Positions 10,816 to 43,068 of a stretch of DNA of 64,000 bases are shown in pieces. Numbering within the stretch: the stretch's first letter is position 1; every line of letters starts with the position of its first letter. Position numbers and translations under genes: made by a program. The notes beneath the pieces are model-generated. The model was not told the DNA's origin and made no database searches. It saw nothing but the letters and a program-made list of their open reading frames with translations. This stretch comes from Octopus vulgaris (Eukaryota). Location of the stretch: positions 147,126,001 through 147,190,000 of the forward strand of contig OX597815.1 in the NCBI GenBank assembly GCA_951406725.2, in the 5' to 3' direction.

Positions 10816-10866
10816 TTTATCAAAATATTTTCGTCGCTTTGAGACCGCGACTTGATCACTGATAAA
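10816..10866 (-). ncRNA. Type I hammerhead ribozyme motif, G3-C8 variant core
   Basis: TTTATCA-GTGATCA-A-GTCGC(GGTCTCAAA)GCGAC-GAA-AATATT-T-TGATAAA: 7-bp stem I, 5-bp stem II, palindromic stem III. Confidence 0.6.
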
Positions 10867-10917
10867 ATTCTGTGCTGCATCTGAAAAAGTAACAGTTCAT
10901 GATATATACGCACGTGT

Positions 10918-11925
10918 AGGCGGCGAGCAGGTAGAATCGTTAGCACGCCGGGTGAAATGCGTAGCCGTATTTCGTCTGCCGTTACGTTCTGAGTTCAAAT
11001 CCCGCCGAGGTCAACTTTGCCTTTCATTCTTTCGGGGTCGATAAATAAAGTACCAGTTACGCACTGGAGTCGATGTAATCGACTTAATCCGTTTGTCTGT
11101 CCTTGTAGCCCCTTATGGGTAATAAAGAAACAGATATATACGTACGTGTGTGTGTGTATGTACGCATGCATGTATGCATGTGTGTATATAAGACTGTATG
11201 TATGTATGTATACGCGTATGTATGTATTCGTCTACATGTATGTGCGCATGTCTATACGCATGTATGCATGTATTTTGTGTGCCGTTACGTTCTGAGTTCA
11301 AATCCCGCCGAGGTCAACTTTGCCTTTCATTCTTTCGGGGTCGATAAATAAAGTACCAGTTACGCACTGGAGTCGATGTAATCGACTTAATCCGTTTGTC
11401 TGTCCTTGTAGCCCCTTATGGGTAATAAAGAAACAGATATATACGTACGTGTGTGTGTGTATGTACGCATGCATGTATGCATGTATGTATATAAGACTGT
11501 ATGTATGTATGTATACGCGTATGTATGTATTCGTCTACATGTATGTGCGCATGTCTATACGCATGTATGCATGTATTTTGTGTGCCGTTACGTTCTGAGT
11601 TCAAATTCCGCCGAGGTCGACTTTGCCTTTCATCCTTTCGGGGTCGATCAAATAACTACCAGTTACGCACTGGGGTCGATATAATCGACTTAATCCGTTT
11701 GTCTGCCCTTGTTTGTCCTCTCTGTGTTTAGCCTCTTGTGGGTAATAAATAAATAGGTATTTCTTCAGCCGTTACGTTATAAGTTCAAATTCCGCCGAGG
11801 TCGACTTTACCTTTCATTCTTTCGGGGTCGATATATAAAGTACCAGTTACGCACTGATTCAATTCCTTTGTCTGTCCTTGTTTGTCCCCTCTATGTTTAG
11901 CCCCCTGTGGGCAATAAATAAATAA
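10918..11925 (+). mobile_element. tRNA-derived SINE followed by three headless tandem copies (303-bp period for the first units)
   Basis: Head GGCGGCGAGCAGGTAGAATCGTTAGC; units restart at GCCGTTACGTT 10978, 11281, 11584, 11768; central GCCTTTCATYCTTTCGGGGTCGATAAA..AGTACCAG resembles the Meta-type SINE domain. Confidence 0.85.
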
Positions 11926-12399
11926 TTATTATAAATCTATAGCACTCTGTCTGTGCTACAGTGTTGGCTGTAGTATGCATTATTTTTATTTCTATAATAT
12001 AAGCTGAGAAAAACATTTGAGTGAGGAATATATTCGATTTAATCGAATCCAATAATTGACACTTGTGCATTTTTTCATTGACCTCTGAGGCGGAAGTTGA
12101 AGTCAGGATTTTACTTGAAACTCCTGAACATTCTGGGTTGCTAAATACCGAAAATATTTAATCTGTTTCTCTACCGAATGTAGAATCCATGAATACAATG
12201 GTTTTGATAGAAATACTTTGACTGTAAAACGAAGCGTAAACGCATAACAAAATTAATCTTTCCAGTGATGTGGTAGGAAATATTGAGAACAACAGAGAAA
12301 TGTATAAGGTTTGTAGCTTGTCTTTGTTGATGTTCGTGATAAGTGTGTCGTGTTTATCACTGCTACTAGTAAGAATAAGGATGGAGATAGAAAATAAAG

Positions 12400-12790
12400 T
12401 ATTGACGCATGAAGTAAATCTCTATTATATGGATGACTTCGAGATGTTAACAAAGAATGAAGAAGATCAAATATATGTGGATTTGGTAAAGAGATATTGG
12501 GTTGGGATTTGGGATTAATAAAATTCGATAGTATAATAATAATAGAAAGAGGTAAGAAGGAGGAATGTAATGGGGGAGAGGATTCCCAAATATGGAAATC
12601 AAGTAGATAATATTTATAAATTCTTCGATATAAAAGAATTGAAGAACAAAAGAACCAGACATGAAAGGCAAGTCTTTGAAAAGCACATCTAAGAAACATG
12701 AACGTTTTACTATAATCTAAAGTAAATGTGGATAAGTTCTTTGGTAAAATGTTAATTATTTGAAATGCAGTTATGCAGTTAACTGAAGAT
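12400..12790 (+). mobile_element. Very decayed R4/Dong RT fragment
   Basis: VNLYYMDDFEMLTKNEE..IG(L)GFG resembles HLFYMDDLKLYGK..DIGMEFG at 6540-6650; abuts (CTA)n. Confidence 0.45.
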
Positions 12791-12797
12791 ATTTAAA

Positions 12798-12890
12798 CTA
12801 CTACTACTACTACTACTACTACTACTACTAATACTACTACTACTACTACTACTACTACTACTACTACTACTACTACTACTACTACTACTA
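12798..12890. repeat. (CTA)n microsatellite
   Basis: Direct reading. Confidence 0.98.
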
Positions 12891-12899
12891 ATGATTTAA

Positions 12900-40421: not shown

Positions 40422-40499
40422 TAGCATCATAGCATTATGATTTTGAAATGTCTATAAAGCCCATCGTATAGGTATATATATATATATATGTATATGTAT

Positions 40500-40720
40500 G
40501 TGTGTATATGTTTGTGTGTCTGTGTTTGTCCCCCACCCTCACTTGACAACCGATGCTGGTGTGTTTACGTCCTCGTAACTTAGCGGTTCGCCAAAAGATA
40601 CGGATAGAATAAGTACTGGGCTTACAAAGAATAAGCTCTGGGGTCGATTTGCTCGATTAAAGGCGGTGCTCCAGCATGGCCACAGTCAAATGACTGAAAC
40701 AAGTAAAAGAGTAAAAGAGT
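40500..40720 (+). mobile_element. Composite SINE 3' part
   Basis: CTTGACAACCGATGCTGGTGTGTTTACGTC..GGCGGTGCTCCAGCATGGCCACAGTCAAATGACTGAAACAAGTAAAAG. Confidence 0.8.
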
Positions 40721-41571
40721 ATATATATATATATATACACACACACAAGCACAAACACACATACATATATACACACACACACACACACACACCACTAGCT
40801 GCAACATTTGATCGAGTATTCAAATAAATATTCGTTAGGGAGAGTACATTCACCCAAAAAACATGTTTGCTATAAATTTAGATGTTTTACTGTTAGATCC
40901 GTTTTTGCAAACGTCTAATTCTCATACTCTAAAATCGAATAATAATTAGCTTATCTGAATCTGATTTCGAATTTTAGATACTGTGCAACGTACATTTATT
41001 TCAATTACTAAAGAATTCATGTGGTACTTGAGCAAACACACCTTCTCTCCCGTCACACATATGCATATATATGTATCAACTCCACGGCCAAATACCATCA
41101 TATCCATATGTTAACAGTATACTCACATATTTTATATTATACTCATCATTTGATTTATTTTCCGTTTTAACGTATACTGTTTCAAACTGTGTATGACAAA
41201 ACTCATAATTATTATTTATTTCGTATTTTCAGGAAGTTTTTCTCATTTATTGTTTCATTACATATTTCCCACAATTTTAATAGTGCATTTTATGAAATCT
41301 AAAGTGGCAGGCATACGGTGTATAATTTTTAGTTATATATATTTTGCCTTGGCATATACAAATAAATGAGACGGGGGCTAATTGTTTTTACTTCATTCAA
41401 ATTGTTTATTAAATTTCATAGTAATTTGATTTAGTTATACCAACGTGTATAAATATGAAATGAATGAATGAGAGTTGACTTGACTTGCTTTGTTCAGTAA
41501 TCAAGTACCGAGACATGTGTGTGTGTGTGTGTATACACACACACACACATACATATACTTTGATACTTTCA

Positions 41572-42000
41572 TAAGTTTCAGCCAGTATGGGTCCAGGCTA
41601 TGTCTGACTTATTAGCACCACCTGGCATAGTCATTTAAATCAGGAATCAGACAACATGGACCACTCAAGGAGAGAGTTATTGTTTACAGATATATCCGGG
41701 ATTTTTAAAGCGATTTGTCCAAAGACTTATTGAATTTTAAGGGGTCTGTTTCTGCTGTAATGTATTTTAGTTAAATGTTGGAGAACGCAGTGCTAATTGA
41801 GGTGAAATAATTGTGGTGTATTGTGTGGTGCGAGTATGATTTTATATTGTAGGCGGATAGTACGGGGTTCAGGTCTTGGGTGTATCTTAAAGGTGAGGCC
41901 TACAACATCTGGGCAAAGCTAATGGAATATTTTCCACATCATGCAGATGATGTAGCGTTCACGGCAGCGGCGTTGGAGAGAATAAAGCTTGAGGTTTTCT
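41572..42000 (-). mobile_element. 5'-truncated relative of the 20-25 kb LINE
   Basis: LKLYSLQRRCRERYIICMMWKIF..LTFKIHPR and a conserved 3' UTR block GGTGGTGCTA.TAAGT.AGACAT.GCCTGGACC. Confidence 0.88.
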
Positions 42001-42113
42001 GGTGCACCCCAATAATATATATATATAGACACACACACACACATATATGTATATATATATATACATATATATATATATATATATACATATATATATATAT
42101 ATACATATATATA

Positions 42114-42777
42114 TATATTTAATGTAGGATAAAATTTTTTCGGAAAAAATTTTTTTTATCAATGGCCAGCATATTAAAAAATACCTTTAAAGGTTAAAAT
42201 TATAAATCACTTATAAATAAGGGCAAACGAAAAAAATTCTAATGCCAAATATGCCGAAATTGGAACTATTGTCCGTAACCATGTAATTTTTCTCAATATG
42301 CACGTTACTCGAAAAAAGGCCGACAGAAATTTCTAAAACATTCCATTATTACCATATCAGACCGATTTCAGGGTTAGTTCGTAAGAACCCTCCCTTCGTC
42401 AGTGATAAATGTGGCAAAAGAAATAAATGAGATACTTACTAATACCCATGGAAGAAGCAAAACACTAAGTCATGAGCACAATTAAGTACTCCAAATACGT
42501 CCCAAATAGAAATACTCCAGCCCATTCAAGACAGGTGCGATTTGAACTGAGGCTCTCACAGAGTGAGAGTGTCCGGAAGTGAACACTTAAATTTATATTT
42601 AATGTAGGATAAAACTTTTTCTAAAAAAAATTTTATCAATGGTCACCATATTAAAAAATACCTTTAAAGGTTAAAATTATAAACAACTTATAAATAAGGG
42701 GAAACGAAAAAAAATGCCAAATATGCCGAAATTGGAGCTATTGTCCATAATCAAATAATTTTTCACAATATATGCAT
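42114..42777. mobile_element. Hammerhead-containing partial tandem unit (480-bp period) in (TA)n
   Basis: About 185-bp direct repeats at 42114-42302 and 42594-42777; TA tracts on both sides. Confidence 0.75.
42355..42407 (-). ncRNA. Type I hammerhead ribozyme, canonical core
   Basis: TATCA-CTGACGA-AGGG(AGGGTTC TTAC GAACTAA)CCCT-GAA-ATCGGT-C-TGATA; GUC site. Confidence 0.8.
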
Positions 42778-43022
42778 ATATATATATACATATATATATA
42801 TATATATATATATATATATATATATATATATATATATATATATATGTATATACATATATGTATATATATATACATGTATATATATGCATATATATATATA
42901 TATACATATATATATATATATATATATATATATATATATATATATATATATATATATATATACATATATATACATATGTATATGAAAGAAGGTTTGAAAA
43001 TGCAATTTTAAAAGATGTTTAT

Positions 43023-43068
43023 TTTCTTGACCGGTTTCACTTTTCTCGTAAATGATTCTCAAAAGTAA
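43023..43068 (-). ncRNA. Hammerhead-like motif, U3-A8 core, weak stem II
   Basis: TTACTT-TTGAGAA-TCATTTACGAGAAAAGT-GAA-ACCGGT-C-AAGAAA; palindromic ACCGGT. Confidence 0.5.

Follow-up and report, generated by a model that had tools for sequence, protein, structure and literature searches.

Variant complementary 3-8 pairs in type I hammerheads of Penelope-like elements and a retrozyme-like repeat of Octopus vulgaris

The pair between positions 3 and 8 of the hammerhead forms in the rearranged active core (PMC3884650), and the 2′-OH of G8 has been put forward as the general acid (PMC6155905). Hammerheads of Penelope-like elements (PLEs) likely act as dimers and cut slowly (PMC4209133; PMC6765202). 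An engineered C3G/G8C change gives partial rescue of a PLE hammerhead whose cleavage needs protein (PMC11167929), and in a full pairwise scan the same G:C swap was the sole rescuing double mutant (PMC9901934). Natural covariation from C3-G8 to U3-A8 has been published and called rare, and U10.1·U11.1 oppositions are tolerated in natural hammerheads (PMC3088659). Here we examine hammerhead cores in one stretch of the Octopus vulgaris genome (the window, 64,000 nucleotides; G000:C2:147126001-147190000, contig OX597815.1), which is microsatellite-rich, has 35% GC and belongs to an assembly of 2.8 Gb in 227 contigs.

The sequence-only reading of this window had named nine core heptamers and proposed that in the deviant ones positions 3 and 8 had changed together while staying complementary. 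All nine were found in place, 25739 on the plus strand and the other eight on the minus strand, and most fit type I hammerhead folds. We conclude, with a probability of roughly 0.75, that type I hammerheads lie at the 3′ ends of several unrelated PLE families and of a retrozyme-like repeat, and that each family carries a fixed 3-8 pair, which selection on the transposing RNA has likely maintained as scattered copies decay. What is observed directly comprises the sequences, the folds as drawn, the fixation within families and the PLE endonuclease link of the families called G, R and S below. Three variant cores of the window could be followed as families:

10816..10866, minus strand: minimal type I hammerhead with a G3-C8 core at 10859-10853 (site 10853, family G).
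35827..35868, minus strand: canonical-looking type I hammerhead with a U3-A8 core at 35862-35856 (site 35856).
43023..43068, minus strand: decayed minimal hammerhead with a U3-A8 core at 43062-43056 (site 43056).

Because best BLAST matches favour the query's own bases, we counted families with exact sequence patterns in which positions 3 and 8 were free; totals are genome-wide, controls are reversed patterns, and the states of 3 and 8 were tallied by eye on the first 100 rows listed per pattern. Family G gave 1,168 matches, the 35856 family 1,265 and the 43056 family 489, each against 0 in the control. The listed rows held 95 G-C, 2 G-U, 1 U-C, 1 G-G and 1 A-A in family G, U3-A8 throughout (100/100) in the 35856 family, and 95 U-A, 3 U-G, 1 G-A and 1 C-A in the 43056 family. 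Positions 3 and 8 are therefore able to pair in 95, 100 and 95 of 100 listed copies, respectively, and literal CUGANGA is absent, with no C3-G8 in the 300 rows. The variant pair is thus the family state in all three and C3-G8 in none of the listed rows: G3-C8 at 10853 and U3-A8 at 35856 and 43056 are family states, not isolated mutants of C3-G8 consensuses, as would have been the case had the proposal been wrong for any of these three testable families. The few mismatched copies in families G and 43056 look like post-insertion decay, and in the 35856 family position 7 is A or C while 3 and 8 stay fixed.

Core bases U4, G5, A6, A9, G12, A13 and A14 and the A15.1-U16.1 pair are present at 10853, 35856 and 43056 and in family R. 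In the tested families helices I and II are accompanied by a helix III of palindromic sequence, helix II of 43056 opening with U·U. The NUH triplet has U17 in 39/39 family G copies and C17 in 11/11 distinct 35856 copies, and position 17 is non-G in 42/42 copies of the 43056 family. Three features that our patterns did not impose (an extra base after A9, G10.1-C11.1 and the palindromic helix III) match the consensus of the minimal hammerhead ribozymes (min-HHRs) of PLEs.

The 10853 motif has an extra nucleotide after A9, a 5-bp helix II opening with G10.1-C11.1, U17, a 7-bp helix I and the palindrome AAUAUU as helix III, and it sits within a longer feature:

10740..10905, minus strand: 5′-truncated 3′ end (a pseudo-long terminal repeat, or pLTR, piece) of a Penelope-like element of family G, with a (TA)n terminus.

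In longer family G copies, about 1.1 kb of low-complexity untranslated region (UTR) separates the hammerhead piece from the stop codon of an upstream GIY-YIG gene with the same orientation. This linkage is contiguous in locus L179, and L182 and L180 carry the same UTR. The L182 endonuclease matches Pfam GIY-YIG (E=1.9e-5), and L180 holds reverse-transcriptase (RT) fragments 47% identical to an RT-endonuclease (RT-EN) protein, P0001; RT is seen for family G as fragments only. By eye, P0001 (799 aa) shows RT-like motifs; its C-terminal part shares 43% identity with the family G endonuclease, and searches of Pfam and PDB gave no useful match to it. Judged from these sequences, family G is a C-terminal-endonuclease PLE, and the description of Neptune/Nematis (PMC8557442) fits its cysteine-rich linker. 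Two other neighbouring GIY-YIG fragments, in L014 and L030, were considered as the family G parent gene and rejected, as homology breaks in L014 and the L030 fragment belongs to family S. In family G contigs from four public runs of four differently coded organisms, G3-C8 stays the major state: no change of G3 is listed (41 weaker rows lie beyond those listed), and C8-to-U makes up 0.5%, 1%, 8% and 0% of depth.

Several side observations concern this family. The window copy has A-U in helix I at 10819 and 10863 where the family has G-C, both sides having changed. Contig C16 (58.8 Mb) holds 32/41 best matches to the family G upstream UTR, part of which may be best-hit bias, the query having come from a C16 copy. 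A 303-nt unit in 2.5 tandem copies, which we take to contain sequence resembling short interspersed nuclear elements (SINEs), adjoins the window copy at 10967-11712.

The 35856 motif combines a 4-bp helix II with a CAAUA loop, the palindrome ACGCGU and a GUC cleavage triplet; helix I resumes beyond an internal loop, and cofolding predicted a palindrome-paired dimer. It lies in a repeat of another kind:

35660..36040, minus strand: retrozyme-like non-coding element, one partial unit plus an inverted piece, between (TA)n tracts.

Elsewhere in the genome the repeat is tandem, with monomers of 360-364 nt at 40% GC (measured periods 362, 361, 360 and 362). It has no open reading frame (ORF) to speak of, the longest open frame being 87 codons.

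Site 43056 has the palindrome ACCGGU, a GUC triplet and a U10.1·U11.1 opposition, the last shared with 43659; both oppositions were read by eye, that of 43056 also through its family copies. Helix I covaries between subfamilies (A-U versus G-C or G·U). No linked ORF was found in 30 loci or in 5 longer loci, and inverted 5′ pieces and microsatellite sites are compatible with PLE habits. The remaining variant core of the window is less secure:

720..765, minus strand: doubtful decayed hammerhead-like remnant, TTGAAAA at 760-754, with G17 (site 754).

G17 does not fit the NUH triplet. A family search returned 8 matches (itself plus 7 at 74-87% identity), and the genome-wide family pattern matched the window copy alone. 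An alignment of nine copies shows A at position 8 in about five of them, U there in three, and G at position 17; a different register of helix I would overlap the core. Site 754 appears to be a member of an old, small family in which a U3-A8 state is doubtful. The proposed complementary variants hold at family level for three of the four variant sites (10853, 35856 and 43056); at 754 the variant is doubtful.

Beyond the window, family R, which the window lacks, emerged from lists of looser patterns. Its own pattern admitted only A or G at position 3 and only C or U at position 8 and had 212 matches (control 0), the first 100 being 68 A3-U8, 30 G3-C8, 2 A3-C8 and 0 G3-U8; positions 3 and 8 pair in 98 of these 100, and position 7 varies freely. 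The G3-C8 and A3-U8 subfamilies are about 90% identical over 325 nt (loci L159-L175, e.g., L163:436 and L169:443). Their hammerheads follow a GIY-YIG stop codon of the same strand at a distance of 170-200 nt, and no RT was seen in the same ORF. More distant family R copies carry G-C, so A-U is probably derived from it. A first tree of the family, with 1 change, was set aside because it included non-homologous flanks.

A generic pattern gave 4,237 matches against 65 in the control, the first 100 listed being 87 U-A, 3 A-U, 5 U-G, 3 C-A, 2 A-A and 0 C-G; it covers one slice of the motif, with G10.1-C11.1 and a four-base loop fixed; among motifs of other shape, C3-G8 families are frequent. Of the five U-G rows, four pointed to family S (loci L185-L204), a PLE that encodes RT and endonuclease in the same ORF. 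In its near full-length copies, which have inverted 5′ pieces in L185 and L186, GIY-YIG precedes the hammerhead on its strand, and the family S endonuclease is about 52% identical to that of family R. With A8, family S has 1,859 copies, 99 of the first 100 listed being U3-A8; with a base other than A at 8 it has 170 copies, and U3·G8 stands in all 100 listed. The U3·G8 copies form two young groups, divergent by 1-1.5% within and 6.4% between, which a branch of weak support (79/92) sets apart on one side in a tree of 17/22 copies from which those lacking the homologous upstream part were dropped. A wobble core thus kept transposing for some time. Two further A3-U8 motifs with other flanks, in L176 and L178, fit the descriptor, and all four Watson-Crick pairs are found at 3-8 in the genome. 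The pattern lists hold more hammerhead-like families (including L097, L176 and L178): at least three further U3-A8 and two further A3-U8.

The window and 20 shuffles of it were also scanned with a descriptor of the type I hammerhead that left positions 3 and 8 open. It gave 9 matches in the window, against 0-3 (mean 1.0) in the shuffles, seven of them named sites (25739, 42396, 38118, 35856, 31381, 10853 and 754); the other two (59278 and 2951) score low, have non-complementary 3/8 bases and lie at shuffle level. A stricter descriptor, demanding an exact palindrome in helix III, found four sites (31381, 38118, 10853 and 35856), whereas 50 shuffles averaged 0.1. Applied to 60 evenly spaced stretches of 10 kb (600 kb of the genome), it gave 15 matches against 0-2 in 10 shuffles: 6 C-G, 5 U-A and 4 non-complementary. 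An earlier strict scan of 600 kb had given 7 matches only (6 C-G and 1 A-A), too few for a 4x4 table. The nine sites have no mutual similarity by BLAST and strict matches occur throughout the genome sample, so that what the window offers is a sampling of repeats dispersed over the genome; the nine sites are unrelated repeat copies, and the notion of a single locus, or of one functional cluster, is dropped. Five of them are C3-G8:

25734..25798, plus strand: C3-G8 hammerhead-like remnant with a long helix II and a non-palindromic (decayed) helix III.
31295..31392, minus strand: C3-G8 type I hammerhead with a long helix II, palindrome ACGCGCGU and GUA.
38047..38129, minus strand: C3-G8 type I hammerhead with a long helix II, palindrome ACAUAUGU and GUC; its repeat family also occurs in the genome sample.
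42356..42406, minus strand: C3-G8 hammerhead with helix III one base short of a palindrome and GUC.
43621..43671, minus strand: C3-G8 hammerhead by eye, with U·U and then a short helix II, a 4-bp helix III and GUA; related sequence occurs at two other loci.

Other elements share the window. An intact-looking non-LTR (long terminal repeat) retrotransposon at 20154-24418 (minus strand) has a 1,019-aa endonuclease-RT frame (Pfam RVT_1 and Exo_endo_phos) preceded by a 447-aa frame with a weak Myb/SANT match. A Tc1/mariner transposase frame of 297 aa lies at 53476-54369 (minus strand), and a broken PLE-like endonuclease region at 63003-63769 (minus strand) has no Pfam match and is 42% identical to a fragment in L022. 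Decayed non-LTR reverse-transcriptase fragments occupy 5831-8101 (plus strand, RVT_1 at 6443-7345) and 1360-2196 (minus strand).

A mechanism can be proposed for the fixed pairs. In a tandem transcript, the palindromic helix III would bring two motifs together. The active fold would include the 3-8 pair, and cleavage would occur after position 17, probably at a low rate or assisted by the protein of the element. As position 8 would act through its 2′-OH, base identity at 3 and 8 would be less important than pairing; because pairing would outweigh identity, lineages could move among C-G, U-A, G-C and A-U, likely via tolerated wobble steps such as U3·G8. We infer dimer formation, cleavage, selection on source elements and this route of change. 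Both G3-C8 families avoid C17 (U17 in all 39 family G copies, A or U in the listed G-C rows of family R), which is consistent with the trapping of G3 by C17 implied in PMC3884650, although two families are too few to weigh.

A range of observations weighs against this explanation. Any selection acts on transposing source elements and not on scattered copies, so the copies are not independent events, and independent changes are few, with one or two switches in family R: a tree of its homologous parts (11/19 rows kept, positions 3 and 8 masked) needs 2 changes, is matched by 104/500 shuffles and does not separate one switch from two. Strict complementarity is not needed for spread, given that the U3·G8 subfamily amplified to 170 copies. 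The four non-complementary strict matches among the 15 of the genome sample are all low-scoring. A loose generic G3-C8 pattern shows no clear excess (203 against 229 in the control), and that of A3-U8 is small (672 against 549) and similar for G3 with non-C8 (1,029 against 821); such genome-wide totals are uninformative, being dominated by background and a non-hammerhead repeat with a non-palindromic loop, and only recurring families were followed. G3 of family G can wobble-pair with U17 and lengthen helix I, cofolding gave no palindrome dimer for this family, and several family copies fold as monomers no better than shuffles. In published work, U-A and A-U were weak in the ribozyme of the pairwise scan, where only the G:C swap rescued (PMC9901934), and hammerhead mutants insert normally in vitro, with no RNA-seq reads ending at the cut site (PMC11167929). 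The sequence-only reading had taken double compensatory change to imply selection. Fixed, complementary pairs within families support this; the shared descent of the copies and the U3·G8 subfamily do not. For the source elements the inference is plausible. In family R, 3 and 8 did change together, with 2 mismatches in 100 listed rows; in family S a non-Watson-Crick subfamily amplified.

It is also conceivable, if unlikely, that the motifs descend from active hammerheads but now retain their 3-8 pair because it serves the folding of the RNA or the binding of a protein, with cleavage weak or dispensable. The in vitro insertion of hammerhead mutants and the need of cleavage for protein (PMC11167929) fit such a role, as do the low in vitro activity of min-HHRs (PMC4209133), the Naiad PLEs without canonical hammerheads (PMC8557442) and the amplified U3·G8 subfamily. 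However, the 3-8 pair forms solely in the rearranged active core (PMC3884650), so that keeping it points to the active fold, and families otherwise without common sequence still have the core bases and NUH triplets.

We regard as very improbable a founder accident, in which a few source elements fixed two changes and were copied thousands of times with the pair unselected. Copy numbers do mirror few source elements, U3-A8 is only two transitions from C3-G8, and the loose G3-C8 and A3-U8 searches demanded complementary pairs; yet searches with 3 and 8 free or non-pairing gave one amplified non-Watson-Crick group only, the U·G wobble. G3-C8, moreover, takes two transversions and is nonetheless found in two PLE lineages that differ in their proteins and in their flanking sequence, and the family R switch from G-C to A-U left just those two mismatched rows. 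That the 10853 motif is a chance hairpin resembling a hammerhead has next to no probability: the window has no Rfam hammerhead match at the gathering threshold, and 10853 has U17, a weak AU-only helix III and a monomer z-score of only -2.0, but all its core positions besides 3 and 8 fit, it sits where PLE hammerheads sit, published PLE hammerheads include U17 and an AU-rich palindrome (PMC4209133), and the strict descriptor has a background of 0.1 per window.

Selection on the transposing RNA for a 3-8 pair thus remains our preferred explanation. A bolder version, for which we would give somewhat less than even odds, is that working hammerheads occur naturally in this genome with each of the four Watson-Crick 3-8 pairs, that its G3-C8 and A3-U8 families are the first multi-copy ones, and that a wobble intermediate transposed, amounting to a stepwise rewiring of the tertiary pair. 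On this reading, censuses based on CUGANGA would miss a large share of the hammerheads in some animals. That such searches overlook whole families was anticipated by the sequence-only reading and is borne out by thousands of copies here (the 4,237 generic matches) and by the empty Rfam search; with no C3-G8 among the first 100 listed of those matches, search descriptors should leave 3 and 8 free. The expectation that compensatory variants are uncommon agrees with the description of U3-A8 as rare (PMC3088659) and not with its 87 of 100 listed rows in one generic class here. As the 3-8 pair is present only in the active fold, its conservation offers a sequence-level test of selection for that fold in PLE hammerheads, and the R and S subfamilies (G-C, A-U, U-A and U·G on nearly identical backgrounds) are ready matched pairs for assays.

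A very large set of PLE hammerheads is reportedly aligned by Lunse et al. 2017. For natural G3-C8 or A3-U8 families, the literature covered yielded engineered examples only; that coverage extends neither to Lunse et al. 2017 nor to Przybilski and Hammann 2007, which may include such variants, and the covered parts of PMC10085705 and 10.64898/2026.07.22.740005 have nothing on natural G3-C8 or A3-U8. Natural U3-A8 and a U3·G8 row are already known, and natural multi-copy G3-C8 and A3-U8 families are, on that coverage, apparently new. The closest described systems are the min-HHRs in pLTRs of metazoan PLEs (Cervera and De la Pena 2014, PMC4209133), which are alike in being type I, with a short palindromic helix III, an extra base after A9 and G10.1-C11.1, and in occurring mostly as lone truncated copies. 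They include a U3-A8 variant with about 1,300 matches in Schistosoma mansoni and, in Fig. S3, one U3·G8 row (Saccoglossus); the main-text and alignment parts covered contain no G3-C8 or A3-U8 core, whereas here both are multi-copy and a switch between them occurs within one family. In the covered parts of Perreault et al. 2011 (PMC3088659) only U3-A8 is named, a state that dominates one generic motif class here. The retrozyme-like repeat at 35856 resembles animal non-LTR retrozymes (Cervera and De la Pena 2020, PMC7229834; Li et al. 2026, 10.64898/2026.07.22.740005) in its ORF-less tandem monomers of 360-364 nt, 40% GC and canonical type I hammerhead, and differs by its U3-A8 core. Finally, the engineered C3G/G8C ribozymes (PMC11167929, PMC9901934 and PMC3884650) have the same G3-C8 pair and show partial rescue; those are laboratory mutants, whereas in the octopus G3-C8 is the natural state of two PLE lineages.

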